This document shows positions 1-38,019 of a stretch of DNA of 64,000 bases, piece by piece; positions within the stretch are counted from its first letter, which is position 1, and the number at the start of each line of letters is the position of its first letter. Under the pieces are notes generated by a model. That model was given only the letters and a program-made list of their open reading frames with translations. It searched no databases and was not told the DNA's origin. The position numbers and the translations under genes were made by a program. Location of the stretch: the NCBI GenBank assembly GCA_016788905.1, contig JAEURZ010000003.1, forward strand, positions 39,262 through 103,261, written 5' to 3'. The DNA is from Elusimicrobiota bacterium (lineage in GTDB: Bacteria > Elusimicrobiota > Elusimicrobia > FEN-1173).

Positions 1-10
1 CGAGGCCCTC

Positions 11-2812: not shown

Positions 2813-2824
2813 ATCACGGGGGGG

Positions 2825-3778: not shown

Positions 3779-3857
3779 AAGAGTTCTGGTCCTGGTTCAA
3801 GGCGTCCGGCGCAGGCCCCCGCTTCCTTGGATCTGTCTTAGCGGTGGGGTTCCGTTC

Positions 3858-5747: not shown

Positions 5748-5841
5748 AATGAATCACATGAAAGGAACATCCGCACCCACGTTATTGTAAAATGGAATTG
5801 TTGTCTATTGATCAAAGGCCAAACCACGAGGTTCCATCGCC

Positions 5842-9068: not shown

Positions 9069-9079
9069 GGAGAGACCCC

Positions 9080-12690: not shown

Positions 12691-12838
12691 GGTGTTCCGA
12701 TAGATTCCCAGAAGAGCCATCGATCACAGTTTTTGGCGTTTTAGCCGATAAGTTATAAAATCCCTCTTGAAGGGGATGGCCCACGGGGAGACGTGTGCCC
12801 TTAAAATCTTTAGCGGAGAGCGACGAAGGGAGAAACCA

Positions 12839-16276: not shown

Positions 16277-16328
16277 GGCTCACGTTTTTACCCGTATTTG
16301 ATTTGGGTCAAGGTGAGGTGTGAGAAAA

Positions 16329-16357
16329 TTTACAAAACCGTTACAATTCCTTAAGGT
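16329..16357 (+). promoter_or_regulatory. possible sigma70-like promoter upstream of giant gene 1 (TTTACA-N17-TAAGGT)
   Basis: AT-rich 113-nt intergenic leader; the hexamers were read directly; weak -10. Confidence 0.2.
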
Positions 16358-16389
16358 GTATTGTTGGTGTTTTTCGGTAAAGTGTTGGC

Positions 16390-19300
16390 ATGTTGATCCT
16401 TCCCGGTCAATTCAAAAGGGTGACGGTTGCCATTCTTTCCGTTTCCCTGTTTTTTTCTCAATGTCTTTTTGCCTACCAATCTGAAAATGGATTTTGGGAA
16501 GACCGGCGGAGAGCCACCCAGCGGCAATCTCCAACCCAATTGGCCTCCCGGTCCATGGGATCTCCTTCCCTGGGAGGGGGCGCATTGGCCCCTGTTCCGA
16601 TCCTCAATTCTTCTCTTTCCTCTAACGTTTCGAAATCACTTCCGAAAAGTTTTTTAAAAGACCACGCCAACCTTTTGGCGGTGCTGTCTCCCGCATTTGG
16701 AAATATCCGAAAAGTATCTCTCGGGCACCCCTCTCCCTTTTCCGGCCCCGTGGTCATTCATATTCAAGACGTTCATATGAATCAAGAGGCCCAGTGGAAT
16801 ATCCGCGAAACGGTTCGATCGTTAATTCAGTCGGGCCAGGTGGGCTTGGTGGCTTTGGAAGGAGCCACAGAGGAACTGAACCTCCAACCTTTTGTGGATT
16901 TTCCCTATCGAAGAGCCGTTAAGTCAACGGCGGATTACCTCCTCAAGCAGAACAAAATCACCGGCCCCATTCACGCGGCTTTCACCGCAACGGGAAAACT
17001 GCCTCTCCTACGCGGAATTGATGATCCTGCCCACTATCAAGCCAACGTCCAGGCCTACAAAGATTCCGCTCCGCGGTTGCTGAAAATGCGCGAAGAAGTC
17101 CACGTTTTATCGATTCAGATCGAAGCTGAGAAAGGAGTTGTTTTTTCTCCCACCTTACGTGCGTTTGACCAGAAAGTCCGAGCTTACAGGGCAGAAAAAA
17201 TGGCCCTGGGGGACTATGTTCGGACCCTCATGGAAGTGGGGGGCGATTCTCCTGTCCCAATCGCCCTCCGCCATTTTGGCGAGGCGTTGGAAATGGAACG
17301 CACACTCAACTTCTCTCAGGTGGAGCTTGAGCGGGCCAAGGTAATCGAAGGACTAACGCAAAAACTGGATCCTCAAGAAACCAAAACGATGATGGCCCTA
17401 AGCCTGGCTTATCGGGCCGGGCAACTCAACTACGCCGAATTTTATACGCAATTGAGGGAAACGTGCCGGGCGAAGGGGCTCTCCTTGTCGAATTATCCTG
17501 CCCTGGATGCCTACGTTCGCTATGTGCTTCTGGCTGAGGGAATCGATGCTGAACAGTTATTGGAAGAGATCTCGATCCAGGAAAAACGTGCCTATGATCG
17601 ATTGGCGGCAACGTCGGAAGAAAAAGATTTGATCGCCCGGTCCCGTGAACTCTGGTTAACCGAAAAGTTGTTGGATTTTTCCCTGACACCAGCGGAATGG
17701 AAAGAATACGATACCACCGTTTCCAGGCCGGGGCGGGAGAATCTGCTTTCGTTCGAGTCGTTCTATCGGGAAGCCCATGCCCGTGACGGCGCCATGGCGG
17801 ATAATCTCCTGAACGCTGTGGGGCAAATGCCCCAGGGGAAAAGGGTCTCCATCTTGGTTACCGGTGGATATCACGCGGAAGGGATTGCCAAAAAATTAAC
17901 AGAAAGTGGAACCACGGTCATTTCCTACGTTCCGAAAATCGAAAAAATTGACACGACCCAGGGATCGGCCTACCTCAGTGTTTTCAGTCAAGAGAAATCC
18001 CCATTGGAAAAGCTGTTTTCTGGGAATAAATTATTCTTAGGCATCAACCCTGCGGCGGGTGTGCCGTCAGCGGCTGTGTTGTCTTCGTCTTTAGCCCAGT
18101 TGGAAGGAATTGCTTCGGAGGACCTGGAAAAAATATCTGGCTATGTAAATGAATTTCACCCGGGCATGAAATTATCACTTAAAGATCCTCATCAAATGCC
18201 GGACAGTGGATGGATGGCTGAGGTCCATGTTCAGGTCGGGGACGAAGAAAAGAGTTTTACGCTCATAACAGATCACGAATTCCGTATTAAATCATTCAAC
18301 TTAACCGAAAATGAGGAACGCCCGCCTTTCGCTTGGCTTACGGAAGTTCTCATCCCTGTTCATCACTTTCTCCAGGGCCACGCGGTCAACTTATGGCTCC
18401 GTGAAGGGAAATCCCCTGAGAGTTTTCAATCTTCATTCTTGGCTGCCCGTGAAACTTCCCTTTCTCGTTTAGTTAAGCAAACCTTGGCGGCGCGCAAATT
18501 ACTCCGATCACAAATAAATGCTAACGGAAGGGCGACCGGCTGGATGGGGGTGGGGATTTCTTGGGGGATCGGAGCGGGGGTGGGATTCGTTCGAAAGTGG
18601 TGGGGGAAAACTGAAAAAGGGGAAACCCCTTTCTCCTACGCAAGGCATTTTGTTTCCTGGAATCGGGGATTAAACGCGTCTCGTTCGGAAGATGGGGTGA
18701 ACGCCTTGGTGTCTGTTTCGGCGGGAGGGTTGGCGGGGCAGACGTGGATGGGTATGGCGTTGGACCCTTCTTTTCTTTTTGTGTGTATTTGGTTTTTGTT
18801 GTTTGTGGCGTCGCACTATGAGAAAAGAACAGGCGAAGGGAAAAAATCCTCGCTTGAAAAGCTAACCGGGCAGGCCCCCAGTTTCAGCAAAGCCATACAA
18901 TTGTTCGGGTTTTATCTTCTTCCCCTTTCGTCCTCGGTGTACATGGGGGCGTCTTCGGTGCCCCTGGGCTGGATTCTTTTGGTGGTCTTCCTCTATTTTC
19001 TTCTCATTCGGCGGGTGCATGATCAGATCAATAAAGAAAATGGGGTTCATTTAGGGGCATGGGGAACCTATTCCAATTTCCTTTTCCCAGCGTCAGCGGC
19101 CTACTGGTATGCGCGGTGGAGCGGGAAGGACGCCCAGGAGGCCCATGGGATCGGTCGGAAATGGATCTTTCTGGAAGGGGTCCCGTTGATTGGTTTGATA
19201 CTGATGGGTGGCTTATCTTCAGGTTTGGGAGAAGAAAGCGTGCTCTGGTTCGGTATCGATCCCGTTTTGGGGTCTTTGGCTCTTTTAGGGCACTTTGGGA

Positions 19301-21858
19301 TTGCCTGGGGTCGATTCGCAATGATGGCCCGGGTGGAAACGATGCAAGGGGAATCCCCACCGGCGGTGGGGGCCGTGACGCGTTACCTTATTTTGTTTGG
19401 ATTGTTCTTGGTCCCCGGAGGTCTCTTCATTGGGTTGTTCGTTAACTTGGTCGTGGCTCTTTTGCAATGGGACGCGGATGGGCGCGTTCCTTCTACTAAA
19501 ACACCCTGGTCTCCGGAAATCACACGAAAAGGGTATCAGATCCACTTGGTCGACTCGGATCAGTTGGAGGGATCACAGGATAAATGGCTTTCGGTCCGGG
19601 CGGTCATCACGCGAATTGGCCCTGACGGTGAGATCCAGTACCTGTTGGTGAAAAACCCTAGTGATCGATGGGAGTTTCCGGGCGGGGGAGGGGCTGAGGG
19701 GGAGTCTCCCACAGAGGCATTGAAAAGAGAACTGAAAGAAGAATTGGGGGAGCCGTTTGCACAGGATGTGGTCCAATTTCTTACCGAAACAAATGAAAAT
19801 AAAAAAAATAAACCGTTAATTACTCATGATTTAATGAAACCCAATAAAAATAAAGAATATAGATCAGTTTATCTTGAAATTTTCCCCCTAAATAAAAAGA
19901 AACACTCTTCTGTCCATATTAATGATGAGTCTTTGAGTAGTCGTTGGTTGAGTTACGAGAGAATGAAAATTGAACTCCCTTCGTTGACATTGGCGACGCG
20001 GATGTCGTTTCTCCCCGAAGTTTTTTTGCGCGAGTTTGGGATTGAAGGAGTGGTGTCCATGTCGCCTTTATTTGGCGACCCAGGAGCGCTATTGGTTGAA
20101 ACAAAAACAAAGAACTATGTGTTTCGCAAAGCGGGGAAAGATGCGTCAGAAGCCGCTTTTAATTCGGCGGTTCAAGCACATCTTTTTAAGAACGGAATTC
20201 TGGTGAGAGAATTAATTAAACGGCAGGGTTCGGAAGAGAGTGAAGAGAAATTTATTTTAAGGTTAGGAAATGTTCCGTTTGTTTTGGAACGTTACGGGGA
20301 TGAGGGCGAACCCATTAAAAAATCCGACGCTGAGGAAAAACACTATATTGCGTTAGGAGCATTGGCCGCTCAAGTTCAAAAGGCTTTAAAAAGTTTCCCA
20401 AAGAATTTGAGTCCAGATCGAAGACTCCCACGGTTTGAGGAAATGGTGAATCCAACGGTGGTGCTGGGTCTCAGCTTCTGGAATGTGGGTTTTTCGATTA
20501 ACGAGGATGGTTCTGTTTCTGTTTCGCGAATTCGTGTATTCGACCGTCCCCATTGGGGAGATCGGCTTGAAGAAATAGTGAATCTAGCGTTTGAAGTTGA
20601 AGCCCCCGGTTTACTTCAAGAACTTGTTACTGCGTATGCTTATCAAATTAATCCGGAACTGACCGATTCGGAGGTCCGTTCTTTAAATGGACCGAATCAG
20701 AAAGCGAACATGAGAGTAGCGTTTAGTGGGTATATGGCCGCAAAAAGGTTGGCTGATGAAAGGATTAATAACGCAAAAAAAATGTCGCCTTCTTCTCTTT
20801 CTTGGTTTTGGATGAATTTTCCATCCCACGTAAGCATTTTAGATGACCTCCTACGGAAAGCGCCCTGGGAATCGGTGTTTTTGGTTGTGGGAATGGGTGG
20901 CGCTGTCATGGCCAATTTGTTGCTGGGAGCTTCGATTTTTTGGGTTTTGGCGGCGTCCCTATTGGCCGGGGTGTTGGGGTATTCTCATACCTGGGGAACT
21001 TATGGGTTTGTGGATGGAAAAATGAAACGGGTTGTGGGAGCCCTGTCTGGGAACAAAGCCGTTTCCTGGTGGCTCTGGACATCAATCTTTGGGGCTCTCT
21101 TGTTGGGGGTGGGGCCGATGGTTCCGGCCGAAGCGCTTGGGTGGGTTCTGGGTGGCGGTACTTGGGCGGCGGCTTGGGTTGGGGTCGTTGTTCACCGGCG
21201 GGGGAACCGGGAATGGCTGGTGGATCATTTGGACAACGGGAACTTGACCCCGGCTCAGAAAAATATCGCCCGGGATATTTTAAAGAATTTGGAACAGCGA
21301 CCCATCCGGCTCGGGGTGGAGGAGTTTCGGGCCATGGTCATGCAAACGGCGGAAACCTATTCCCGTGGACAGGGAAGTCTTGCCATCGATGTTCATGCCC
21401 CAGCGGCGTCGCTTGGCCAGGGGATAAAGCTGTATTTTGTGGATCCTGTGGCGGTTCGTTCTTCCGAGAATGTGGAAAAATTGACATGGATGATGAAAGC
21501 GGACAAGAATCTTTATGTGGTTGCGGGCAATTCAATCGATGGTTTGCCCAGTGATCGTGTCCTTGTGGTGGAGGGGGCTTTCCAATCGGTGGGGGGGAAA
21601 GACAACCCTCTCTTTGATGTGTCTTTGAAAGAAGTCCGAGTTCCGATCCTTGATCGATTTAAAAATCCGTCGTTCCGAATTCTCCAAACACCGCTGATCC
21701 AGTTGAATGGTGACAACTTGGTACCAGAGGATCCACTCCTTGTTGCGTCTAAGAATGCTCTGATTTTCATCCTGGAATCCATGCGGGCGTTCCCGTCCAC
21801 CGCGTTTCACTGGGGTGATGTATTGCACGTTTATCGGGCTTTGGCGGAATCGGCTTAA
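16390..21858 (+). CDS. giant multi-domain membrane protein 1 (1822 aa): signal peptide, TIKI/TraB-like N-domain, polytopic TM region, Nudix hydrolase box, C-terminal TM + soluble domains
   Basis: Signal-like 'VTVAILSVSLFFSQCLFA'. N-domain motifs 'VVIHIQDVHMN' and 'ARDGAMADNLL...VTGGYHAEGI'. Nudix box 'GGGGAEGESPTEALKRELKEELGE'. Multiple hydrophobic helices. N-terminal 550 aa is paralogous to the downstream giant gene. Confidence 0.75.
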   Translation: MLILPGQFKRVTVAILSVSLFFSQCLFAYQSENGFWEDRRRATQRQSPTQLASRSMGSPSLGGGALAPVPILNSSLSSNVSKSLPKSFLKDHANLLAVLSPAFGNIRKVSLGHPSPFSGPVVIHIQDVHMNQEAQWNIRETVRSLIQSGQVGLVALEGATEELNLQPFVDFPYRRAVKSTADYLLKQNKITGPIHAAFTATGKLPLLRGIDDPAHYQANVQAYKDSAPRLLKMREEVHVLSIQIEAEKGVVFSPTLRAFDQKVRAYRAEKMALGDYVRTLMEVGGDSPVPIALRHFGEALEMERTLNFSQVELERAKVIEGLTQKLDPQETKTMMALSLAYRAGQLNYAEFYTQLRETCRAKGLSLSNYPALDAYVRYVLLAEGIDAEQLLEEISIQEKRAYDRLAATSEEKDLIARSRELWLTEKLLDFSLTPAEWKEYDTTVSRPGRENLLSFESFYREAHARDGAMADNLLNAVGQMPQGKRVSILVTGGYHAEGIAKKLTESGTTVISYVPKIEKIDTTQGSAYLSVFSQEKSPLEKLFSGNKLFLGINPAAGVPSAAVLSSSLAQLEGIASEDLEKISGYVNEFHPGMKLSLKDPHQMPDSGWMAEVHVQVGDEEKSFTLITDHEFRIKSFNLTENEERPPFAWLTEVLIPVHHFLQGHAVNLWLREGKSPESFQSSFLAARETSLSRLVKQTLAARKLLRSQINANGRATGWMGVGISWGIGAGVGFVRKWWGKTEKGETPFSYARHFVSWNRGLNASRSEDGVNALVSVSAGGLAGQTWMGMALDPSFLFVCIWFLLFVASHYEKRTGEGKKSSLEKLTGQAPSFSKAIQLFGFYLLPLSSSVYMGASSVPLGWILLVVFLYFLLIRRVHDQINKENGVHLGAWGTYSNFLFPASAAYWYARWSGKDAQEAHGIGRKWIFLEGVPLIGLILMGGLSSGLGEESVLWFGIDPVLGSLALLGHFGIAWGRFAMMARVETMQGESPPAVGAVTRYLILFGLFLVPGGLFIGLFVNLVVALLQWDADGRVPSTKTPWSPEITRKGYQIHLVDSDQLEGSQDKWLSVRAVITRIGPDGEIQYLLVKNPSDRWEFPGGGGAEGESPTEALKRELKEELGEPFAQDVVQFLTETNENKKNKPLITHDLMKPNKNKEYRSVYLEIFPLNKKKHSSVHINDESLSSRWLSYERMKIELPSLTLATRMSFLPEVFLREFGIEGVVSMSPLFGDPGALLVETKTKNYVFRKAGKDASEAAFNSAVQAHLFKNGILVRELIKRQGSEESEEKFILRLGNVPFVLERYGDEGEPIKKSDAEEKHYIALGALAAQVQKALKSFPKNLSPDRRLPRFEEMVNPTVVLGLSFWNVGFSINEDGSVSVSRIRVFDRPHWGDRLEEIVNLAFEVEAPGLLQELVTAYAYQINPELTDSEVRSLNGPNQKANMRVAFSGYMAAKRLADERINNAKKMSPSSLSWFWMNFPSHVSILDDLLRKAPWESVFLVVGMGGAVMANLLLGASIFWVLAASLLAGVLGYSHTWGTYGFVDGKMKRVVGALSGNKAVSWWLWTSIFGALLLGVGPMVPAEALGWVLGGGTWAAAWVGVVVHRRGNREWLVDHLDNGNLTPAQKNIARDILKNLEQRPIRLGVEEFRAMVMQTAETYSRGQGSLAIDVHAPAASLGQGIKLYFVDPVAVRSSENVEKLTWMMKADKNLYVVAGNSIDGLPSDRVLVVEGAFQSVGGKDNPLFDVSLKEVRVPILDRFKNPSFRILQTPLIQLNGDNLVPEDPLLVASKNALIFILESMRAFPSTAFHWGDVLHVYRALAESA

Positions 21859-21887
21859 TGACAAACGGGGGGCGGTAGATCAAGCCA

Positions 21888-24800: not shown

Positions 24801-27800
24801 TGCTTGGTCTTTCCCGATGGTGCCAACCTGACGGAAGATCGAGGGACCATTGACTTAGTGCCATCCGATCAACGCGTCACTTCCGAAATCGCGGGGATGA
24901 AGCGTTTGATTGACCGATGGACGAATCCAAGGCTTTCCATCGAAGAACGGTTTGCCCTACTGAACACTTTGGCCGTATTCTTAAGGGCAAAACAACCTCG
25001 GGCCGAGAAAGGGTTGACGAGGGACAATCTTCAAACCTGCACAGATCTCTTGTGGTATCTAAGCAAGAAAATCCTCCCTTTGTTAAAACAGGACAGGGAA
25101 CAAGGAAAGACGTTCCTTCCCAACACCGAGGAATGGCTTTCTTTTGAGGGGAAAAGCGGCGTCATTCTTTTGGATACAGATATTTTTGAACCGAACGCGG
25201 CGGATTTCATCGCTGCAGGGATGTCCGATGTAACGGAAAACCCACTGTGGGCTCCATTGGATAAGCGGATACGTCATTTTTATCTGGCGGATTTGAGCGC
25301 GGCCCCTGCGGTGATTCTCGTGGGCAGTGGGGAAACAGTTATTGTTGATCGGACTGTCTTTGAGCGAGAAAGTTCTGACCCGGAAATCCTGTTGGAGAGA
25401 ATTCGAAAAAGTATTGATACGGCCTGGGGAAAATCCAGCCAAACGTTAACAAAACAATCCCCTTCCAAAAAGTCTTGGGTTCAGAGGCATTCCCTCCGTA
25501 TCGCCTCCTTTTTTTTGGCCCTGCTGGTCGCCGCTTCGCTCTGGATGACCTGGACTGTTGATGGAAAATTTGAGAATGAACCGGTTGAATTCGTCCCCCA
25601 TCAGATGACTCTAACTCCTGGTGCGATCGGATGGTCAGCCCCCAGTTGGGTCGATTCGGAATGGTGGAGTTCGTTTTTCTCATTAGACAAGGAACTTAAA
25701 CCGCGCAAACCCTATGGACGGATCATCGGTTTAGTGGATTCTCCTTATCTGGTTAAAGGGTTTTACCCGCATCTTACTGGCGACGGTTCATTCAAATCAG
25801 CGGGCGACCTGACCTCCCGGATGGAGGGACCTTCTAAGTCAAAAATAAGCCTTATGGTCGCCGTAACAAAGGAAAGAAACGAATCCATCCCTTTGCTTGT
25901 TCCTTACCACGGACAAGTGGACGCCAAGAGCGTTAGAATCCATATCCCTGGAAGACCTGCGGAGGCCTTACCACTCGCATACGAATCGGGACAACCGGTG
26001 GTTCATCCTCTAACGAGAGGATCTTTTTCCCTCTCATGGGACGTTTGGGTGGCTGAGAAGCAATATTTTAGTTACCGAAACCTACCTCTACCACCCAAAG
26101 AAATCGAGAATTTCCCCTCCGAATGGGCAGCGGTCCTTGATCCTTTGCAATCCGCGCACGACGAAAAAAAACTTTCGGCCATTAAACATCTGATGGGACG
26201 CTATTTCGCCTACGATGCCGGTAAAACCTATGGATTTGATGGCACCAGTTGGGCCAGCACCGCTAAACCCTATTTGGAAAGAGGAGAACGAATTCCAATT
26301 GTCTGCAACACATCAACGTTATATTTTTATCTGATGGCGCGTTATGTGGGCCTTCCCGCCATATATGTCGAATTAGAAAATTCAGGAAGTGAGAATATCC
26401 TATACCGGGATCTGTCCGGCCACGCGCAGGTCGTCGTAAAAGTGGGATACGAATGGGTCGTGCTTGAAACGACCAATGTAATGCCTCTTGTCCAAAGAGC
26501 GTTTCCCTTAAAACCGAGTTCACTATGGGGAGATATTCAATCCCAAACTAAAAATTTAAATTTAATACTAATCGGTTTTTCTGGTTTTTTATTTTTTATG
26601 GCTCTATGGAAGGGGGGACCTCAATCAAAGGAATATTTTTCAAGGAATTATTTTAACCGGTTGAGATATTTTTTAAAAAACAGAGTTCATTTAAAGGGAT
26701 TCGATATACAGGTCTCCCCATGGGGAATGATCAAAAAAACCAGAACCACAAATCCTTTTGGAAATCCTTCGATTGAAACAGAAACTCATCTGGGTGTTCT
26801 TTATCAAACCAAAGGATCAACGTTTACCCCGTTGAAATATGAGCATGGCAAATCCGACTACTTTCTGTCTCTTAAAGGGGAATTCGAAGGCGTCATAATC
26901 AAATTAATATTTCTCTTGGTGTTCAGCGTCATCTTTGGATCAATTGGATGGGATATTTTGTCATCTTCATCGAATCTGACGACCCCGATCCTAATGGGAA
27001 TATCCATATGGATGTTGATCACCTTTTTGGTTTTGCATCGACTTCCTGTGTTAATTCGCCTCAATGAGAATGGATTAAAACTTGTTTCTGTTCCCTATCC
27101 AAAACGATTCGTTCCTGAGGTTTTAGAGGTTAAAGACGGCGCCTATTTGGATTTTGGGGGAGGTGATTTCTATTGGCTGGGACTTGAATCGGGTCACCTT
27201 AAGAAAATTGTTATTCCTGGACTTCGGGAAATTAAACCTGTTTCTAAACCCGGAGGGAAAGCCGCTTTAGTGGCATTGGTTAAAGATCAAAAAAATGGAT
27301 CCAGATTTATTGTATACGAACCCCAGGGGACTCATTTAAGGGAAGTATGGAGTATTCCCTCTCCCCCAAGCCTTGCCCCTCTGTATGATTGGAAATCATT
27401 ATACTTGTTCCCATCGAACCAATACGTCATTGCCTACCAAACCATCAATTCGGATATGACGGAATTCATTACTCTTGGCCAACCCATTCCGCCTATTCCG
27501 TCACAAATTCCGTTGAGGCATCTTTATCCATTTCAGAACAGTTTTATTAGTGAAGTGGGGAAAATCCCGATTTTTCCTGGGGATAGTCATCCGGAAATTA
27601 CACCTCGTCTGGATGGGAGACCGTATTACATCTTTTCAGACGATATTGTTGGGTTCCCAACAGGTGAGCGGGATGACGAGTCCAAATATTTAACTTTGTT
27701 CAATATTTGGTCGGGTGACCGGTTGGGGGAAATACCCATTCAAGGAATGGACAGCATCTATAACCCTATCGTTTTAATTGATAATACTGTTTTCAGATTA

Positions 27801-30800
27801 TCTCGCGCGACTGACGAAAAGGGATCCCCTAAACCCCAACTGCAAATCATCGATTCAACGGGGTATCGGTCCATTGACCTCGCCCCATGGGCAGGGCTTT
27901 CCAAAACTATTTCCGAGGTTTGTGCCAGAGTGACAGGGCATCCTCGAGATCTGTTTATCACCTTCGATGCTAGGCACAGCCAGATCTCCAAATACACGAG
28001 TGGTGAATATATAAATTCCGGCCTTCCCTTCTATTTCGGGTTCGACCGCCAAGACGGACTGACAATATTTGGAACGGAATTAAATCGTGTGTTTACCAAA
28101 TCTCCCTTGAAACCCCCGGAATTGAAAGAATTAAAGAAAAAATTGGATGGACCTGCCTTGGAATCCCTCGAGAACCGAATGTCGTATATGACAGAATGGC
28201 ATCCCCACGAATTGTTCATTCCCTGGGTGGATTCCACCATCCCACCGGATGTTAAAGATCGGTTGGATGGGGTGGCTCGCGAAAATCTAGAACGGCAGGA
28301 TTGGGTGCGGGAGGTTTGCCGCGCCCTATACGTTTTGAATCGAGACCCGGCTGGACAGGCAGGGCCAATTCTCAGACGTTACATGGACTTATTGGAGATG
28401 GATCCCGAATTGGAAGAAACCCTTCGCGAAAAACTCTTTACCCCTCAAACAATGCCTGGGGTTGACTATCCTATGGAGCCCATCGTTTTTTTATGGCGGT
28501 CGCCCAGCGAACAACCCCCTCTCCCTTTAGAGGTGGAATTTTTCCTGTCCCTGTTGTCGAAAGAATTCGAGGATATTTTGAAGTGGGAAACCGAAAGAGC
28601 CCCCACCTTCCCGACCGACATTGTCATAAACCCTTTAAGTGACGACCGTTCTTTGTCCCGGTTTTTGGGGGCCGCCCGAAAGACCTCAACAGAAGAGTTG
28701 GATGGCCCTGATGGGTTCTCAAAACTTAAGGACACCTACGATGAGTTAAGCCCCCAGGACCATGCCGCCCCATCTGAAATCGTGGGGCCAGCCAACAATC
28801 AGGGGCTGGCCGAACCGTTGTGGCTGCGGGAACTGGTACAAAACGCTCGGGATGCGGTAAGAGAAGCCCGCCGAACCGGGGCTTTATTACAAGATCCGGC
28901 CATACGAATGGGAAGTTATTTGAACCGAGAAGGAGAGCGTCCTCGTCTGGTCGTTAGCGTTAAAGACGGGTTAGGAATGTTTTTAAGCCGTTTGGTCAAA
29001 AAGGTGTTGGACCCGGACGAAACGACAAAGACCTTAGCGGACGATCTGCTGGAACAACTGAGAAAGGGAACGGACACCACCACCCGCACGCAAGGGGTTA
29101 TCGACACGCTCGTGCAACCGGAAAAACGTGACGATGCGGCCCTCCGCCAGGCGATCCAGGAGCAGATTGAGGGCAATGAAATTAATGAAGCGTTGGCGCG
29201 GAGAATGGCGGATGCGTTTTCGTTGGACATGACTCCCACCAGCTCGGGGTTTATTGGGATTGGTTTCTTTACAGCTTTTCAGGCCGATGAAGTCATGGTG
29301 CGAACGGGGCGCGGTGGCTCTCTTCATGAAATTAAATTGCGGACCGTGAGGGCGTCTGACGATAGGCGGATTGTGGACATTCAGCTCTTGTGGGCTCGAA
29401 AAATCTCGGATCCCCAGGGAAAGTATCAAGGAACGGATGTTCAATTGGGGTTCGATCTCCCACGAGAGGATGACCCCACCTTTGATCGTGAAGTGATTCG
29501 GGCCCGAATACGCAACGCCCATTTTCATTGGATGGCCATGAATTACCTCAGTGGGGTATCGGATGTGGACATCTATTGGAACGGCGTCAACCTACGGGAG
29601 TCCACCTCCCCAGGAGCGACTGTTGGGGAAATGGCCTCGGTTTTAGGATCCCGTCATCCCGGCCGCCTTTTGGTGGATGAACTCCGCATCCAAGAGCTCC
29701 CGAAAGCTCTCGTGTCCTTGGTCCCGACTTGGGTCCAACGGGTGTTGACCGAGGAAGGTGTTAACATTAAGTACCCCCGCACCCGGTCCTTCGTTCGAAC
29801 ACGACGCGCCATCCAATCCCCGGAAAACGATGCGCGTCCCATGGCCCTCTTGGCCCTGCGCACGGTCTATGTTCATTGGCGCAACGGAGGAGTGGTGGAC
29901 GGGTTGCCGCCTTATGAGGAGTATCGCCTCCAATCACCGTGGAACAGTTATCCGGCGGATGAAAACGTTCGGAGGGATGCGGCGTTCCTCTTGCAGACGA
30001 ACGGGAGCAAGGACGGTCAGGAGGAGTTTTGGGGCCGGTTTGAAAAGGAGTATCTATCGGCTCGGGGACGTTGGGTCCAACTTATGCTGGAAGTGGCTGA
30101 TGATCGAGACGCCTTCTATCGTCAAGCTCTGCCCCACGAGTTTTCAACCGCATTGGATGCCGCCCGGGAAAAGGGTGTATTGCTCGGTCTTTCCCCTGCC
30201 CGGGCGCCTCCCGCTTCCTCCGACGATTTGAGTCGGCGCGTTCTTCGTCCTCACCTGGCACGCTGGGCACGGCTCTTTCTCGAAGGACGGGTGAATATCG
30301 AAGGTCGTTCGGTGAGAGAATGGGCCGGTGTAACACCATCTGGAGAGGACTGGACTCAATCCCTATGGCAAGTTGTTCCCGAAGGGGCCACCCTTCCTCT
30401 TTCTCAGATCGTGGCGACCATGGACCCAACCGCGACCCCTGTTTTGGCTGAGGACACAACACAAATGGAATTATCGATTCGGGCCCTCTCAGAGGCAGGG
30501 AGCGTTTTTGCGGCGCGGTTGCCCCTTCCTCCCACCCACATGATGATCGACGAACGCCTCTTGTGGGCCTTAAAACTTTTTTTACTCAAAAATGAACTGT
30601 CTCCTCTATTGGACGCATTTTTGATGACGCTCGGGCGGCATAAGAATGGGTCAGCCGTCTCCTTTTACGAGCAATGCTTGCGTGAAGGGTTGGATAAAGC
30701 CGACCTGAAACGAAGGTTGGTGTCCCTGGGTAATATTTCCGACATCGACGCGTCCATTGATCACCAGATCCAACTCTTACGCGAAAACCCGACCCATCAG

Positions 30801-32036
30801 CTGGATACCTTACTGAAACCCAATGTTTCGTCCTCCTCCACGGTCCTTCCTGGGATGATTCCTGCGTTTACCCGGGCGCTTCTTTACCGGTTTGTGAAAT
30901 GGTTTGGCGCAAAGCGGGGAACATCCTTCTATGTGAAATGGGGATCGGCTTTTTCCGAGGGTGTCACTGTCCTAGGACTTCCTTTGCTCTTGATGGAGAT
31001 CGGGGGAGGGGTATTTAATCCCCTCTCTGCGCCAATGATTTTTTGGCTGATGTACGCCTCTGGAAAATTATTGTTCGTGCGGGCCCACCCCCAGGGGAAC
31101 AGCTTATTTTACGGGATGGCTTTTGCGCCAGTGGGAGTGGCGTTCTTTGTTGTGATGTTTCTGGGCTTATCGGTTCCCGGGATCCTTCTTATCGTCGCGT
31201 CGGAAGTGGTTCCCCATGTTCGCAACAACACCGCCTATTGGCATAGGTTAAGTCCAGGAGAACGATTGGCTTTGGAGGTTTCCGCCGCTCAGGACGCCCT
31301 TGCCCGTGGGGTCCGTGTTCGTGATGCGGATGAGCTCAGAGAGGAAACCTTTCAATTGTTGCTGGGTGCGGATTCCCTTGGCCAGCGTTGGACCCATCAC
31401 CTGCGCGTGGAGGACATCTCTTTGGAACAATCCCGTTTTAAAGAGAAGTATGGGCAGGTCCAACGGGAGGTCTTTTCTCCCCAAATGCCGCGTTCTTTGA
31501 GGGAAACCGTGTTGGAACAATTATTTCGAAAAATGGGACCGGCTCAACGTTTTGAATCCATGTGGGGGGAAGAAGATTCGTCCACGAATGCTGTTTTGAT
31601 TTTGTTGGACGAATTCCGAACCAACCAATTGGAGGAAATTGTTACTAAGGCTATTCAGGTCTCTCTCCAGCAGAAAAAACAATTGCTTTGGGTCGCTGAA
31701 AATAGGCCCCTCAAACTCCGGGCCGAGGCTCTTCTTCGAGATCGGGGGATTTTCGTTCAAATCCCACTCTTGAACGATGGAACCGATTTTGTTCGTGTGG
31801 GACGATTGGGGAGAGTCAACGACGGAGCCCTTGAACAACTCACCCAGCCCCAACGGAAAGATAAAGTGATCAGACAACTCTCCATCTGTTTGGGGGAAGA
31901 ATGGACGATCCAAAAAACAACCCAGGAATCCTTGTTCCAAAACGCGAATATCTTTTTCTTCGATCGCTGGCTTTCTGTTCATAAACTACTGGAAGAAGGA
32001 CAGCGCCTCGCCCACTTCATTGCTCAAATGGCGTAG
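21888..32036 (+). CDS. giant multi-domain membrane protein 2 (3382 aa): signal peptide, TIKI/TraB-like N-domain, transglutaminase-like Cys-protease core, TM segments, Hsp90/sacsin-type GHKL ATPase, C-terminal polytopic region
   Basis: Signal-like 'LSVILYVCTQVVFTHA'. N-domain 'IVVLLQDVHWN', 'ARDGTMAGAL...VAGGFHGEGI'. TGase-like 'VCNTSTLYFYLMARYVGLPAIYV...GHAQVVVKVGYEWVVLETTN'. GHKL boxes 'RELVQNARDA', 'VKDGLGM', 'SSGFIGIGFFTAFQADEVMV'. Many TM helices. Confidence 0.75.
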   Translation: MEKMTFLPKLNPILRHLSVILYVCTQVVFTHAAESGFWEERRKSRSLIGSTYAALPTSSLPGMERVTKNLGTLSASLHSSISNLGGHAPLSHVIRAIPHELGSIRNIYPPQSPENPIVVLLQDVHWNIDAQRNLSRLIQELSSFQWKDGKSTEMVLALEGAFGAIDISAFRNYGHPTILRRVADRLLLDRRIAGPLHGLLSGEKIPARIVGVDDRRHYQSNVMAYRTAIPHQKSLRNQLFQKRREFVKRQNTVFSKGLKSFDYEARSYHEGKKSLSHYSRILASTYSGNKQTFARENPTLSIFLQAVEMESSLDFNRVERERGQWLNQLTHFLSAEGRNSLIEAGISYRLGQISLSDFYQHLIAVGGTRAPLANFPAMAAYTNYVLLGERVDPGKLFEEVTRLETALYDRLAESQEAKALVKDTRELDLSLRLVDFALTPPEWEAYKRWVPENSNLEIFERFYREAEARDGTMAGALQSSLILSKGNKGPLGPRPTPALGILVAGGFHGEGITKRLVNAGIGVITVVPRIKTLDDKPGLALSVFTQDRTPLEKLVSGEKLFLSEPVFDPSRQALTALACAATGAADGLAIPPGEISNLLPTPLADLPTQVQTPSPHTGVVSIQARGGEVTVTSTLENQGGQILSLTESQAGRGLPQPEPLRGYSWEQLVAAMRPFIASGGKDESFYRGVVWDLILDPRRTKRLGPLLSRQAVDPAQAISESIDNGQDGVLRRFEPDVRPVGRRGVGGIQIFNDLKSSADRVVITSSRDGLNGVEFTFWKEGGEIRFTYKILYVSEWGDENINALLPALSKDIATELVFRLPQGTKIDVRCALSAEETGRRLSFVRKKLRLNTRSPIDVNGTNVDQTGEYKHGGLTRPVSATELPPVHVTINPNGYSVTDEGIGMGLKEMFEDYLFPYKTTKSMTTPHGEVDYYYKPGSGRETTIASFIPSREIESLSPSPEGTPLNVIPELCLVFPDGANLTEDRGTIDLVPSDQRVTSEIAGMKRLIDRWTNPRLSIEERFALLNTLAVFLRAKQPRAEKGLTRDNLQTCTDLLWYLSKKILPLLKQDREQGKTFLPNTEEWLSFEGKSGVILLDTDIFEPNAADFIAAGMSDVTENPLWAPLDKRIRHFYLADLSAAPAVILVGSGETVIVDRTVFERESSDPEILLERIRKSIDTAWGKSSQTLTKQSPSKKSWVQRHSLRIASFFLALLVAASLWMTWTVDGKFENEPVEFVPHQMTLTPGAIGWSAPSWVDSEWWSSFFSLDKELKPRKPYGRIIGLVDSPYLVKGFYPHLTGDGSFKSAGDLTSRMEGPSKSKISLMVAVTKERNESIPLLVPYHGQVDAKSVRIHIPGRPAEALPLAYESGQPVVHPLTRGSFSLSWDVWVAEKQYFSYRNLPLPPKEIENFPSEWAAVLDPLQSAHDEKKLSAIKHLMGRYFAYDAGKTYGFDGTSWASTAKPYLERGERIPIVCNTSTLYFYLMARYVGLPAIYVELENSGSENILYRDLSGHAQVVVKVGYEWVVLETTNVMPLVQRAFPLKPSSLWGDIQSQTKNLNLILIGFSGFLFFMALWKGGPQSKEYFSRNYFNRLRYFLKNRVHLKGFDIQVSPWGMIKKTRTTNPFGNPSIETETHLGVLYQTKGSTFTPLKYEHGKSDYFLSLKGEFEGVIIKLIFLLVFSVIFGSIGWDILSSSSNLTTPILMGISIWMLITFLVLHRLPVLIRLNENGLKLVSVPYPKRFVPEVLEVKDGAYLDFGGGDFYWLGLESGHLKKIVIPGLREIKPVSKPGGKAALVALVKDQKNGSRFIVYEPQGTHLREVWSIPSPPSLAPLYDWKSLYLFPSNQYVIAYQTINSDMTEFITLGQPIPPIPSQIPLRHLYPFQNSFISEVGKIPIFPGDSHPEITPRLDGRPYYIFSDDIVGFPTGERDDESKYLTLFNIWSGDRLGEIPIQGMDSIYNPIVLIDNTVFRLSRATDEKGSPKPQLQIIDSTGYRSIDLAPWAGLSKTISEVCARVTGHPRDLFITFDARHSQISKYTSGEYINSGLPFYFGFDRQDGLTIFGTELNRVFTKSPLKPPELKELKKKLDGPALESLENRMSYMTEWHPHELFIPWVDSTIPPDVKDRLDGVARENLERQDWVREVCRALYVLNRDPAGQAGPILRRYMDLLEMDPELEETLREKLFTPQTMPGVDYPMEPIVFLWRSPSEQPPLPLEVEFFLSLLSKEFEDILKWETERAPTFPTDIVINPLSDDRSLSRFLGAARKTSTEELDGPDGFSKLKDTYDELSPQDHAAPSEIVGPANNQGLAEPLWLRELVQNARDAVREARRTGALLQDPAIRMGSYLNREGERPRLVVSVKDGLGMFLSRLVKKVLDPDETTKTLADDLLEQLRKGTDTTTRTQGVIDTLVQPEKRDDAALRQAIQEQIEGNEINEALARRMADAFSLDMTPTSSGFIGIGFFTAFQADEVMVRTGRGGSLHEIKLRTVRASDDRRIVDIQLLWARKISDPQGKYQGTDVQLGFDLPREDDPTFDREVIRARIRNAHFHWMAMNYLSGVSDVDIYWNGVNLRESTSPGATVGEMASVLGSRHPGRLLVDELRIQELPKALVSLVPTWVQRVLTEEGVNIKYPRTRSFVRTRRAIQSPENDARPMALLALRTVYVHWRNGGVVDGLPPYEEYRLQSPWNSYPADENVRRDAAFLLQTNGSKDGQEEFWGRFEKEYLSARGRWVQLMLEVADDRDAFYRQALPHEFSTALDAAREKGVLLGLSPARAPPASSDDLSRRVLRPHLARWARLFLEGRVNIEGRSVREWAGVTPSGEDWTQSLWQVVPEGATLPLSQIVATMDPTATPVLAEDTTQMELSIRALSEAGSVFAARLPLPPTHMMIDERLLWALKLFLLKNELSPLLDAFLMTLGRHKNGSAVSFYEQCLREGLDKADLKRRLVSLGNISDIDASIDHQIQLLRENPTHQLDTLLKPNVSSSSTVLPGMIPAFTRALLYRFVKWFGAKRGTSFYVKWGSAFSEGVTVLGLPLLLMEIGGGVFNPLSAPMIFWLMYASGKLLFVRAHPQGNSLFYGMAFAPVGVAFFVVMFLGLSVPGILLIVASEVVPHVRNNTAYWHRLSPGERLALEVSAAQDALARGVRVRDADELREETFQLLLGADSLGQRWTHHLRVEDISLEQSRFKEKYGQVQREVFSPQMPRSLRETVLEQLFRKMGPAQRFESMWGEEDSSTNAVLILLDEFRTNQLEEIVTKAIQVSLQQKKQLLWVAENRPLKLRAEALLRDRGIFVQIPLLNDGTDFVRVGRLGRVNDGALEQLTQPQRKDKVIRQLSICLGEEWTIQKTTQESLFQNANIFFFDRWLSVHKLLEEGQRLAHFIAQMA

Positions 32037-32247: not shown

Positions 32248-32670
32248 TTATCCGCCGAAGCGGAGGGTCGCTTTGGCGGTGCCGTCCCAACCGCAATAGA
32301 AGACGGGGGCGCCTTCTTCTTCCCAGTCTCGGGCGGCGGTTAATAACATTTCCGGGATCGCCATGCCGGATTCATTGAGAAAATCTTTTGTTCCGATCAG
32401 GGCGGCCCGGGGCGTTGATTCGCCCGGCAGTTGAACTGCACCGCCAAAACCCTTTTCCCCAAAATCTTGAAATCCACTGACCGTTTGCGTTCCTTGGCTG
32501 TTCCAGAGGGCTACGCGGTGAAGGTCCTTGGCGCAGGGGTGTTGTGATTGCGCGGCTAAACTGGCGGCGATCGTTAAAAAATCGCGCTGGGCCTCGATGC
32601 TGGCGGGCCAGGTTTGGAAACCGCGGAATCGCCAGGCCGGGTCGCCGGTGGGGTGGTCAAGGTTGTCCAT
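32248..32670 (-). CDS. hypothetical protein (140 aa)
   Basis: ORF co-oriented with and overlapping (14 nt) the upstream DUF420 gene; no motifs I recognise. Confidence 0.4.
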   Translation of the reverse strand: MDNLDHPTGDPAWRFRGFQTWPASIEAQRDFLTIAASLAAQSQHPCAKDLHRVALWNSQGTQTVSGFQDFGEKGFGGAVQLPGESTPRAALIGTKDFLNESGMAIPEMLLTAARDWEEEGAPVFYCGWDGTAKATLRFGG

Positions 32671-37881: not shown

Positions 37882-38019
37882 TTCGAAATGAAGAGTGGGA
37901 TCACGGTCTTTTGGGCATGATCTGGGTCATGGCGGATTTAGATCTTTTATAGGACAATTATTTGCGGGGGGTTCATGGGCAACCGGGGGGGTGCCCGTTG
38001 CAGCAAGGAGGCCAGTCCC

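Follow-up and report, generated by a model that had tools for sequence, protein, structure and literature searches.

Giant genes are often reported from Omnitrophota, Elusimicrobia and similar lineages and still await an explanation, in part since the divergence of their bodies defeats comparison. Two adjacent, very long genes in the genome of an Elusimicrobiota bacterium raise the question of what such genes encode, whether the two belong together as a system, and on which side of the membrane their products would act. An initial annotation of the window (i.e. the whole 64,000-nucleotide stretch of contig JAEURZ010000003.1 that was analysed) had read them as an uncharacterised tandem system of paralogous membrane proteins, combining a TIKI/TraB-like domain, a transglutaminase (TGase)-like protease, a GHKL ATPase and a Nudix domain.

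Two intact genes of distinct composition

The locus is arranged as follows:

16277..16389, + strand: leader, 113 nt, GC 0.40, between the PPi-PEPCK gene and gene 1
16390..21858, + strand: gene 1, 1822-aa head-cargo-tail protein, NCBI MBL8023031.1; identical ORF in independent assemblies
21859..21887, + strand: spacer between gene 1 and gene 2, 29 nt, with a G-rich, RBS-like stretch in its sequence
21888..32036, + strand: gene 2, 3382-aa head-cargo-tail protein, NCBI MBL8023032.1; intact in JGI, ENA and Logan assemblies

Both ORFs, co-oriented and adjacent as first described, are intact, real genes. With regard to the concern that they might be assembly chimeras or be split by frameshifts, the 1822-aa and 3382-aa pair is also intact in the JGI and ENA assemblies, and a complete gene 2 is present on a Logan contig, with 0-3 nt differences per gene from the window across these assemblers and samples. 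The annotated NCBI start of gene 2 lies 13 codons downstream of the ORF start used here. A chimera, or decayed ORFs without function, would account for cargo regions with low similarity to anything known and for a composition that is heterogeneous along both genes; however, with reading frames uninterrupted over 5.5 and 10.1 kb, the agreement between assemblies, same-locus orthologues in four genomes, and thousands of clusters in which head and tail are conserved and the catalytic residues invariant, this explanation can in practice be discounted.

With a spacer of just 29 nt, a common orientation and no terminator-like site listed within the spacer by a terminator scan, the two genes are probably co-transcribed. 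The AT-rich leader reported earlier is indeed present, and contains one 9/12 promoter-like site (16320-16347), such sites occurring across the region at chance level. The lower GC of the pair relative to its flanking genes is likewise borne out (0.50 vs 0.545-0.589; GC3 0.52 vs 0.61-0.67), and the internal AT-rich blocks could be located as low-GC3 stretches at aa 1051-1500 of gene 1 and aa 1351-2100 of gene 2, both of which overlap cargo regions.

Conserved ends: a hydrolase-like head and an Ala-terminated tail

The N-terminal features of the two proteins are:

16417..16476, + strand: gene 1 N-terminal hydrophobic segment, aa 10-29, KD 1.85; signal peptide or signal anchor
16477..18084, + strand: gene 1 head module, aa ~30-565, with a hydrolase fold of TIKI/Ere/ChaN/TraB type and, inserted in it, ~240 aa of helices
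21921..21977, + strand: gene 2 N-terminal hydrophobic segment, aa 12-30, KD 1.38, then THA-AESGFWEERRK
21978..23624, + strand: gene 2 head module, aa ~31-579, paralogue of the gene 1 head; head HMM E=3e-185

Each gene thus opens with the signal-peptide-like start ascribed to it, the hydrophobic segment being strong in gene 1 and weaker in gene 2. Across the family described below, a basic n-region, a hydrophobic core and the pattern A-H-[AST]-x-E-x-x-F-W-x-E-R-R occur together in 120 of 185 members; R-R-(R/K) is conserved immediately after the hydrophobic segment, and Pro occupies position +1 of the putative cleavage site in ~30% of members. The ~550-aa paralogous N-terminal domain claimed for both genes was recovered by BLASTP, with 36% identity between the heads over ~560 aa (E=6e-85).

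Structure predictions were run on the head and tail modules. The AF2 model of the head is confident and comprises an alpha/beta core with a parallel beta-sheet, as in Ere, ChaN, TraB, RRSP and HopBA1, the last two of which are effectors and count among its structural neighbours; the proteins used for comparison were EreC (6xcq), ChaN (2g5g), Bacillus 2qgm and 2rad, RRSP (5w6l) and HopBA1 (5t09). The invariant residues of the gene 1 head are D127, H129, E157, R465 and G492-G493-x-H495, with D127-x-H129, E157 and H495 invariant in 24 diverse heads. The catalytic motif described for RRSP (E3900, H3902, E3930, H4030) and Bcr135 (H85/E113) is of the 2His/2Glu type (PMC6254334). At the level of sequence motif, the head carries the same elements, i.e. 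a (D/E)-x-H, a Glu 28 residues on (a His-to-Glu spacing equal to that in RRSP and Bcr135; PMC6254334) and a C-terminal G-G-x-H, and it shares a helical, lid-like insert with the Ere enzymes. Unlike the TIKI/Ere/ChaN/TraB proteins compared, it has Asp in place of the first Glu and an insert of ~240 aa, and is always found at the N-terminus of a giant multi-TM protein, never standalone or as a toxin effector.

Profile searches place ChaN PF04187 on the head at 19.8-21.1 bits, under its gathering cutoff of 27.7, with sub-threshold matches in 12 of 24 family heads (best E=9e-6), and TraB PF01963 gave no match in Pfam; the head is therefore assigned at superfamily level only. At that level, predicted fold and motif together confirm that it belongs to the TIKI/erythromycin-esterase/ChaN/TraB superfamily, as a putative hydrolase, in line with the TIKI/TraB-like domain of the initial annotation.

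At the opposite end of the proteins lie:

21157..21855, + strand: gene 1 tail module with a Rossmann-like core, aa 1590-1822, C-terminal sequence ...YRALAESA-COOH
30960..31193, + strand: last TM cluster of gene 2, aa 3025-3102, some 3 helices by hydropathy
31245..32033, + strand: gene 2 tail module, of the second tail subfamily, aa 3120-3382, C-terminal sequence ...AHFIAQMA-COOH

Complete family members share this back end, in which the last TM cluster is followed by a Rossmann-like tail of ~230-280 aa with a terminus of the form ...hydrophobic-A-x-x-Ala-COOH. The tails fall into two subfamilies, both reaching the exact C-terminus: that of gene 2 matches the C-termini of family members P0154, P0149, P0173, P0020, P0086 and others, and the tails of genes 1 and 2 show a weak relationship to each other at their very ends (hhalign E=1.4e-4, probability 53%). 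A median of 279 aa separates the end of the last TM segment from the C-terminus, and the terminal residue is Ala in 117 of 185 members, compared with an expectation of 9.4% (P~4e-72). Also Ala-terminated are adjacent giants at other loci, among them an Omnitrophica protein of 10,539 aa. No Pfam or NCBIfam model reached its cutoff on either head or tail.

Variable cargo between the ends

Between head and tail, gene 1 encodes:

18070..18390, + strand: post-head conserved domain, aa 561-667, ~100 aa
18745..19476, + strand: TM cluster 1, aa 786-1029, about 5-6 helices by hydropathy
19606..19965, + strand: Nudix hydrolase domain, aa 1073-1192, Nudix box aa 1099-1121
19987..20874, + strand: conserved domain after the Nudix domain, aa 1200-1495
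20869..21189, + strand: TM cluster 2, aa ~1494-1600, by hydropathy

The post-head domain is common to family members P0063, P0082, P0116, P0145 and P0151 (E down to 1e-20) and is kept in all four orthologous loci considered below. The Nudix box proposed for gene 1 is real: PF00293 scores 43-46 bits against a cutoff of 21.1, the complete box G-x5-E-x7-R-E-U-x-E-E-x-G-U was confirmed by regular expression, and the domain is also matched by Nudix entries of NCBIfam and the PDB. In these respects it resembles Nudix hydrolases of the MutT/RppH/NudI-like kind, from which it differs in being embedded between two TM clusters of an 1822-aa protein; relatives contain two or three tandem Nudix copies. 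Its substrate specificity is unassignable, since no NCBIfam equivalog cutoff was reached. The domain that follows is homologous to aa 1919-2195 of P0151 (E=4e-25) and to P0124, and has no match in Pfam or among PDB sequences.

The corresponding part of gene 2 contains:

23688..25487, + strand: soluble region, aa 601-1200
25494..25550, + strand: TM helix, aa 1203-1221, hydropathy KD 1.83
26166..26492, + strand: transglutaminase-like (papain-fold) core, aa 1427-1535, with Cys1473, His1512 and Glu1527 as a candidate triad
26553..27056, + strand: one TM helix at aa 1556-1574, then a TM hairpin at aa 1668-1723, by hydropathy
28824..29327, + strand: possible degenerate Hsp90-like GHKL module, N-box aa 2313-2323, G1 aa 2359-2364, G2 aa 2454-2460

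No Pfam, NCBIfam or PDB match was found for aa 601-1200, in which an N-box-like motif (aa 720) and DEGIGM (aa 898) stand isolated, 178 aa apart. A TGase-like Cys/His core, as claimed for gene 2, is probable judging from its sequence. The segment scores 18.3 bits (E=0.0028) against PF01841 and the whole protein 14.9, below the cutoff of 23, with a match spanning model positions 53-107 of 108 that includes Cys1473 and His1512; the third position is Glu1527 as opposed to the Asp of a Cys-His-Asp triad. Nevertheless, aa 1202-1312 of P0167 are 38% identical (E=4e-15) and conserve the Cys, His and Glu.

The Hsp90/sacsin-type GHKL ATPase also attributed to gene 2 gained no support from profile searches. 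No HATPase_c or HATPase_c_3 match was obtained from Pfam at E<=10, the NCBIfam sacsin model NF047352 gave 13 bits over 15 residues against a cutoff of 50, and the best PDB match by phmmer, the HtpG N-domain, was non-significant (E=0.29). The N-box (of E-x3-N-A-x-D type) and the G2 box (GFIGIGF; G-x-x-G-x-G) are co-linear with those of HtpG; the G1 box, K-D-G-L-G-M, is non-canonical, its Asp standing one position off D-x-G-x-G, and no homologues of the region were found from which to build an alignment. By sequence comparison, gene 2 cargo may be summarised as a TGase-like domain and ~2,000 aa without assignment, together with what is perhaps an Hsp90-like GHKL module in degenerate form. As for the 'long polytopic regions' initially described in both genes, hydropathy does identify TM clusters, but these punctuate what are mostly large soluble regions.

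One family, and a locus with a single resident gene

Both genes belong to one unnamed family, which comprises >10,000 clusters and has a fixed chassis, in the order N-terminal segment, ~550-aa head, lineage-specific cargo with TM clusters, last TM cluster and tail; we found no description of this chassis in the literature searched. Searches with the head returned 10,311 clusters (at 50% identity) with E<=1e-3, 7,080 of them with E<=1e-30, from Elusimicrobia, Omnitrophica and relatives, nearly all of the proteins being very large. The head is N-terminal in 48 of 48 first matches, and among the top 150 profile hits there are 148 in which it lies <=55 residues from the N-terminus. Pfam content is highly diverse and cargo differs from member to member, including elsewhere PGM/PMM, PMI, hexokinase, PPDK, kinases, methyltransferases, sugar-nucleotide enzymes, GNAT, HAD and DnaJ. 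Members are found singly, in pairs or in triplets with unrelated cargo, and those from Omnitrophica adjoin, or are fragments of, larger giants.

Four related Elusimicrobia genomes have the same flanks together with an orthologue of gene 1, which is the single giant gene at each of the four loci; none of them contains gene 2. Identity to these loci is 63-84% in the flanks, 50-56% in the head and 36-45% in the tail, with the middle unrelated or partly duplicated and a total span of ~2,100 to ~3,350 aa. Gene 1 is thus the resident gene of a chromosomal locus and gene 2 a lineage-specific second family member, and the two are not an obligate pair.

The proposal that the two genes form a dedicated system, with cooperation between TIKI, Nudix, TGase and GHKL activities, e.g. 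in defence or signalling, is contradicted by this synteny. The close spacing and probable co-transcription of the genes are in its favour, as is a weak PADLOC match of gene 1 to PDC-S07 (33.7 bits). That match, however, covers only a generic 32-residue stretch of the Nudix box, and is the sole PADLOC indication of anti-phage defence, gene 2 giving nothing; the GHKL module lacks profile support, and the varied groupings of family members also argue against such a system, which we consider highly improbable. What stands of the initial annotation is a pair of uncharacterised, paralogous multi-enzyme membrane proteins of an uncultivated lineage; the four-activity 'system' does not stand, in view of the synteny and the variation in cargo.

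Relationship to known giant proteins

Multi-enzyme ('Archaeovorin-type') giants have been described, without function, in Omnitrophota (West-Roberts et al., bioRxiv 10.1101/2023.11.21.568195; bioRxiv 10.64898/2026.06.07.730766; Seymour et al. 2023, PMC10066038). Omnitrophota giants are listed with NUDIX, HATPase_c, PPDK_N, HAD, HEAT and SecA-type domains and many TM helices, and their N-terminal regions 'generally lack identifiable domains' save for some C39 or S8 peptidases; neither a TIKI/Ere-like head nor a conserved tail nor an Ala at the terminus is mentioned in the published descriptions. Shared with our family are an occurrence in uncultivated bacteria with small cells, single ORFs of great length, an N-terminal signal-like segment, many TM helices, a poorly conserved body and a mosaic of divergent enzymes (NUDIX, HATPase_c, methyltransferases, HAD, PPDK_N, HEAT, SecA-like), and there are head-bearing Omnitrophica members that adjoin the 10,539-aa giant. 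Unlike the Archaeovorin type (gene >90 kb, >30,000 aa, Omnitrophota), the present proteins of 1822 and 3382 aa are from Elusimicrobia and 10-40 times smaller. The best reading of the two genes makes them smaller relatives, in Elusimicrobia, of the Omnitrophota multi-enzyme giants, by likeness of architecture and domain content. The initial annotation had overlooked this known class, as well as the large head family and the conserved tail with its terminal Ala.

A second point of comparison is provided by MARTX and polymorphic toxins, in which conserved terminal regions likewise frame variable central enzyme modules that are swapped between lineages, and MARTX toxins also contain a TIKI-fold peptidase (RRSP). 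However, MARTX toxins carry their TIKI domain as cargo, and in the present family it forms the conserved head; moreover, neither protein contains glycine-rich repeats or a CPD autoprotease (Pfam), the window contains no T1SS genes, and both proteins carry many TM clusters.

Mechanistic interpretation

We infer the function and membrane topology of the two proteins from the features above. The best explanation, to which we assign a probability of about 0.5, is that a chassis family carries an exchangeable, membrane-tethered tool kit of envelope enzymes. The N-terminal segment would target the chain to the membrane and place the head outside the cytoplasm where, its catalytic residues being intact, it may work as a peptidase or esterase; the TM clusters would staple the polypeptide to the membrane, and the cargo enzymes would constitute a tethered tool kit at the cell envelope, exchanged rapidly between lineages with retention of head and tail. 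So organised, the proteins would be a small-scale Elusimicrobia counterpart of the multi-enzyme ('Archaeovorin-type') giants of Omnitrophota. Export of the head is suggested by the basic n-region, hydrophobic core and A-H-[AST] site in 120 of 185 members. Hydropathy leaves TM parity unfixed, including that of TM cluster 1 in gene 1. In family members P0063, P0122 and P0160 there is no strong TM segment between head and Nudix domains, and an exported head therefore implies exported Nudix domains, which would be unusual for nucleotide-dependent enzymes; the putative GHKL module of gene 2, if outside the cell, would be without ATP, and the Pro at +1 in ~30% of members, like the sub-cutoff ChaN score of the head, also speaks against an envelope tool kit.

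Those same observations on P0063, P0122 and P0160 and on Pro at +1, which argues against cleavage, suit a different arrangement that we regard as possible, albeit less than probable, namely that the proteins are cytoplasm-facing, membrane-tethered enzyme scaffolds, with the N-terminal segment an uncleaved anchor, the head and most cargo on the cytoplasmic face, and the outside left to short loops or to domains that single TM helices enclose, e.g. the gene 2 TGase-like domain. Metabolic or regulatory enzymes would thereby be concentrated at the membrane. Cargo that needs cytoplasmic cofactors (Nudix, HATPase_c, methyltransferases, hexokinase, PPDK, HAD) and the R-R-(R/K) right behind the hydrophobic segment are consistent with this arrangement, and a head inside would put the gene 2 TGase-like domain outside and the GHKL-like region inside, which suits both. 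It is harder to reconcile with the classic signal-peptide layout, including an A-x-A-like site, of those 120 members, with the published topology predictions for Omnitrophota giants, which are mostly of signal peptide plus TM helices with extracellular domains, and with the extracytoplasmic or secreted proteins among known TIKI/ChaN/TraB members (e.g. Tiki and ChaN). By analogy with MARTX, the proteins could alternatively be self-processing polyproteins or effector carriers, with head and tail as a delivery and processing frame from which cargo would be cut out, possibly to enter a host or prey cell. The TIKI endopeptidase catalytic motif retained by the head, the presence of RRSP and HopBA1 among its structural neighbours, the conserved ends around a variable middle, and cargo that includes common effector domains (Nudix, papain-fold Cys protease, kinases, GNAT, HAD, DnaJ) all point in this direction, as do literature proposals that N-terminal peptidase domains cleave Omnitrophota giants and a reported three-fold increase of a giant protein in prey-attached cells. 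Nevertheless, neither secretion-system genes (T1SS or other) nor immunity-like genes are among the annotated ORFs of the window, the many TM clusters favour retention in the membrane of the producer, much cargo elsewhere belongs to ordinary sugar and nucleotide metabolism (PGM/PMM, PMI, hexokinase, PPDK), and no cleavage sites or processed products are known, making an effector carrier decidedly unlikely.

Significance

The family provides three landmarks by which giants can be compared, i.e. the TIKI/Ere-like head with its catalytic residues, present in >10,000 clusters, the conserved tail, and the Ala at its terminus, and the one locus in five genomes, with ends conserved and middle swapped, constitutes a natural experiment; together these make the sidedness of head, cargo and tail, self-cleavage by the head and recognition of the C-terminus testable. 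Proteins of 1.8-3.4 kaa are small enough for cloning and expression, unlike giants of at least 30,000 aa, and, as head and tail match no Pfam or NCBIfam model above its cutoff, profiles of these modules could better annotate thousands of 'hypothetical' giants. More speculatively, and with rather low confidence, head-cargo-tail may be a general, previously unrecognised chassis of many large and giant proteins of Elusimicrobia, Omnitrophota and allied small-celled bacteria, whose ends would drive export, anchoring and/or processing of cassettes, with the terminal Ala-carboxylate recognised by the head, a protease or a sorting factor, and whose exchangeable cassettes would have as their target either the envelope of the producing cell itself or a host or prey cell. 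If this were true, the family would represent a new protein display or delivery system.

The gene pair and its chromosomal context

The initial annotation described two co-oriented giant open reading frames (ORFs), and both were recovered in this Elusimicrobia metagenome-assembled genome, where NCBI names the products 'NUDIX domain-containing protein' (gene 1, MBL8023031.1) and 'hypothetical' (gene 2, MBL8023032.1). The principal features of the region are as follows.

1811-2812, + strand: ORF with no Pfam match
12767-16276, + strand: 1169-aa ORF directly upstream of gene 1
16390-21858, + strand: gene 1 (1822 aa)
19540-20889: low-GC3 block of gene 1 (aa 1051-1500)
21888-32036, + strand: gene 2 (3382 aa)
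25938-28187: low-GC3 block of gene 2 (aa 1351-2100)
32248-32670, - strand: 140-aa ORF downstream of gene 2, with no Pfam match
37975-38637, + strand: ORF with no Pfam match

The genes are separated by 29 nt holding a G-rich, RBS-like stretch, and the terminator scan lists no terminator-like site between them; site numbers in the promoter and terminator scans were at chance level. The pair is intact and in the same context in the JGI and ENA assemblies, and gene 2 is complete on one Logan contig, each gene in these versions showing 0-3 nucleotide differences from the window; neither ORF is therefore likely to be an assembly chimera or a product of frameshifts, for which the initial annotation had allowed. 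With strains so close, an analysis of dN/dS from strain variants was dropped. The reported compositional contrast also held: GC is 0.50 in the giant genes against 0.545-0.589 in their neighbours, GC3 is 0.52 against 0.61-0.67, and gene 1 is preceded by an AT-rich leader of 113 nt (GC 0.40). The lowest GC3 (0.36-0.48) occurs in two blocks that overlap the variable middle regions of the proteins (hereafter cargo), that of gene 1 lying between its two transmembrane (TM) clusters, a distribution consistent with exchange of cargo cassettes acquired from donors of lower GC.

The 1169-aa upstream ORF was considered as a possible third gene of the system and rejected, as it is a PPi-dependent PEPCK (PDB 6k31 and 8e1u; E=0); it has no match in the Pfam copy searched, and PF26300 (PEPCK_PPi_lobe_2) is listed for this gene in precomputed annotations elsewhere. 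Core chromosomal genes make up the remainder of the window, encoding a two-component system, NrfA, an alcohol dehydrogenase (ADH), an aminotransferase, DUF420, an Asp-Al_Ex permease, two radical SAM proteins, HflX, Der, PlsY, GpsA, PheST, MltA, a sigma factor and three tRNAs. A mobile-element origin was rejected, since no integrase or transposase is found among the annotated ORFs adjoining the giant genes; secretion-system genes are likewise absent from that set. The 140-aa ORF downstream of gene 2 is kept at 76% identity in one orthologous locus (L010).

A TIKI/Ere-like head at the N-terminus

Both proteins begin with a hydrophobic segment, and their first ~560 residues are paralogous (36% identity, E=6e-85), as had been noted from the sequence. 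This ~550-aa module, termed here the head, forms the extreme N-terminus in all of the first 48 homologues, proteins of 1,950-5,865 aa from Elusimicrobia, Omnitrophica and one Chlamydiota. An exhaustive search with a profile built from 24 aligned heads gave 10,311 cluster representatives at E<=1e-3, 7,080 of them at E<=1e-30, and the head started within 55 residues of the N-terminus in 148 of the 150 best profile matches.

The AF2 model of the head is confident (pLDDT 80, core mostly >90), Foldseek also ranked EreC first, and sub-threshold matches to Pfam ChaN were obtained for 12 of the 24 heads. The invariant columns (D127, H129, E157, R465 and G492-G493-x-H495) correspond, as judged from the alignment, to the 2His/2Glu catalytic motif that is a feature of active TIKI/Ere enzymes (PMC6254334), with the first Glu replaced by Asp; the His-to-Glu spacing of 28 residues equals that of RRSP (H3902/E3930) and Bcr135 (H85/E113) (PMC6254334). 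Together these observations place the head in the TIKI/Ere superfamily, with a helical insert of ~240 aa and with catalytic residues that appear intact. The proposed TIKI/TraB-like assignment thus stands at the level of superfamily, in fold and motif, but does not extend to the Pfam families ChaN and TraB themselves.

Against PDB sequences the head profile gave only non-significant, EF-hand-like matches, confined to the helical insert; in gene 1 (aa ~240-345, window ~17107-17424) many such weak matches occur (E~0.1-0.7), the proteins involved being calmodulin, centrin and myosin light chains, all non-significant. Weak matches to the PAH_ZNF598 domain were seen in 5/24 heads (best E=4e-4).

Variable cargo between head and C-terminus

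Beyond the head, the Pfam content of the 48 homologues differs widely, and includes methyltransferases, HAD, GNAT, hexokinase, IMPase, PPDK, Nudix, SecA-like, DnaJ, kinases, HEAT, helicases and HATPase_c. The two proteins had been described as having long polytopic regions; TM clusters are indeed present, but both chains consist mainly of soluble regions between them. The Nudix domain of gene 1 was confirmed: it scores 43-46 bits where the cutoff is 21.1, and its Nudix box is complete. A post-head domain of ~100 aa and another of ~300 aa (aa 1200-1495) are kept across the gene 1 subfamily, without an assigned identity. Four relatives of gene 1 (P0116, P0063, P0145 and P0160) have Nudix in two or three copies. 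In the giants of two orthologous loci, L004 (P0151) and L012, two regions each match the gene 1 TM-cluster-plus-Nudix segment (aa ~760/900-1230), which suggests that this segment may be the unit being duplicated there. The sole non-Elusimicrobia match to gene 1 in the genome scan, in a Candidatus Altimarinota MAG (L013, 4046-4237), was rejected as a family member, being a 62-residue Nudix-box match at 39% identity.

In gene 2, the transglutaminase (TGase)-like core falls below the Pfam cutoff (18.3 vs 23 bits), but a homologous region of the family member P0167 (38% identity, E=4e-15) keeps the Cys, His and Glu, and we regard the assignment as probable. The claimed GHKL ATPase was not confirmed, with no Pfam matches and 13 bits for the sacsin model against a cutoff of 50. 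The top PDB sequence match of this region is the HtpG N-domain, non-significant at E=0.29; the N-box and the G2 box line up with it in order, but the G1 box is K-D-G-L-G-M and not the canonical D-x-G-x-G. A genuine HATPase_c domain does occur in P0002, the protein whose head is closest, at nearly the same position (aa 2327-2415); transitive support from this protein was rejected, as the domain is of histidine-kinase type and the bodies (the parts beyond the head) are without significant co-linearity. Elsewhere in gene 2 there are an isolated GHKL-like N-box, ESIDNGQDG (aa 720-728, window 24045-24071), and a perfect Hsp90-like G1 motif, DEGIGM (aa 898-904, window 24579-24599); a second GHKL domain built on these was set aside, the motifs lying 178 aa apart with zero profile or PDB support. 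Searches of Pfam, NCBIfam and PDB assigned no domain to ~2,000 aa of gene 2.

A conserved, Ala-ending tail

A word-indexed database search with the 1263-aa and 2783-aa bodies returned self-hits alone, an output that is not reliable as evidence of 'no homologue' for long divergent queries: body homologues of up to 144 bits exist among the proteins from the exhaustive profile search. The body searches were repeated locally against 183 family members, and clear homologues were obtained for the post-head domain, Nudix domain, aa 1200-1495 domain and C-terminal region (tail) of gene 1, and for the TGase core and tail of gene 2. The notion that the bodies have no homologue anywhere is thus ruled out, and reflects the sensitivity limit of the word-indexed search.

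In 14 proteins, sequence reaching to the very C-terminus aligns with the last ~230 aa of gene 1 (best E=1e-44), and the last ~260 aa of gene 2 align with the C-termini of a second set; between the two tail profiles there is a weak alignment at the far C-terminal end (hhalign E=1.4e-4). A terminal Ala is present in 117 of 185 family proteins, against 9.4% expected (P~4e-72), within the pattern ...hydrophobic-A-x-x-A, and the median distance from the end of the last strong TM segment to the C-terminus is 279 aa across the same 185. Neighbouring giants at other loci also end in Ala. At an Omnitrophica locus (L008, GCA_014728075.1) a 10,539-aa gene (1-9409; start outside the locus) ends ...KILIAA, and directly downstream of it lies the head-bearing P0043 (10001-22201; at least 4067 aa, cut by the contig end). 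Co-evolution of head and tail was considered and dropped: heads group by tail type only inside the gene 1 subfamily, a pattern that fits vertical descent and is uninformative on coupling.

Orthologous loci in related genomes

The locus is kept in four related Elusimicrobia genomes, with flank proteins 63-84% identical to those of the window and in the same order (ADH, aminotransferase and PPi-PEPCK upstream of the giant; Asp-Al_Ex and then two radical SAM genes downstream). Each of the four holds one giant running from head to tail, the gene 1 orthologue (head 50-56% identical, tail 36-45%), with spans of about 2,100, 2,500, 2,550 and 3,350 aa; the C-terminus is ...ALAEAA in L010-L012, the three loci read that far. 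The middle of these proteins is either unrelated to gene 1 or carries the duplicated TM-plus-Nudix unit. Gene 2 finds a head-only match at the four loci, and no match was found for it in a comparison with genome and metagenome contigs. Elsewhere, head-bearing genes are found singly, in pairs separated by a few genes, or in tandem triplets. The proposal of a dedicated two-gene system is therefore not sustained: gene 1 is the resident gene of the locus and gene 2 a lineage-specific second family member. The giants diverge much faster than the genes around them.

Some differences in gene content were also seen. In L004 a 396-aa Fic-domain gene (2538-3728, + strand), absent in the window, lies between PPi-PEPCK and the giant. 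An extra ORF of ~610-640 aa, with no matches to the window proteins compared, occupies the aminotransferase/PPi-PEPCK interval in L010 (3494-5323), L011 (3157-5067) and L012 (4438-6309); in the window these two genes directly adjoin (12690/12767). In a further genome (GCA_016722575.1; L003, 7949-21157) a singleton family member of 3718 aa with methyltransferase cargo directly follows lepA, lepB (signal peptidase I) and hemN and precedes hrcA-grpE-dnaK-dnaJ; its placement beside genes for signal peptidase and chaperones may be a coincidence.

Possible function and relation to known giant proteins

In this architecture a hydrophobic segment at the N-terminus is followed by the TIKI/Ere-like head, by cargo that varies and is interspersed with TM clusters, and by the Ala-ending tail. 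A Sec-signal layout (basic n-region, hydrophobic core and A-H-[A/S/T] site) is present at the N-terminus of 120 of 185 members, and such a segment would place the head beyond the cytoplasmic membrane, where it might have peptidase or esterase activity. The chain would be tethered by its TM clusters, and the cargo would amount to a set of enzymes, bound to the membrane at the envelope, that can be exchanged rapidly. We infer this mechanism, to us the likeliest, from the architecture; for the multi-enzyme giants of Omnitrophota a similar role has been suggested but not proved.

Topology is the main weakness of the envelope mechanism. Hydropathy leaves the TM parity of both proteins unfixed, Pro occupies position +1 of the putative cleavage site in about 30% of members, and several gene 1 relatives are without a strong TM segment between the head and Nudix domains, so that both domains must be either exported or cytoplasmic. 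These points make a scaffold facing the cytoplasm a serious, though less likely, rival, set against the Sec-like N-terminus of most members. A self-processing or effector-carrier protein, suggested by analogy with MARTX toxins, seems to us less probable still.

Among described classes, the nearest is formed by the giant 'multi-enzyme' or Archaeovorin-type proteins of Omnitrophota, although genes 1 and 2 lie outside it by size and phylum and are compared with it here through its published description. An enrichment of Elusimicrobiota in huge proteins lacking annotation has been reported (PMC11573180), and the N-terminal regions of the Omnitrophota giants were generally without identifiable domains (West-Roberts et al.). 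Neither head nor tail is matched by any Pfam or NCBIfam model at cutoff, and the literature searched makes no mention of the TIKI/Ere-like head, the conserved tail or the terminal Ala. The gene pair is a real feature, akin to an already known yet unexplained class of giants, and, rather than a two-gene 'system', is a clear, tractable case of a very large family in which a conserved chassis carries swappable enzyme cargo.
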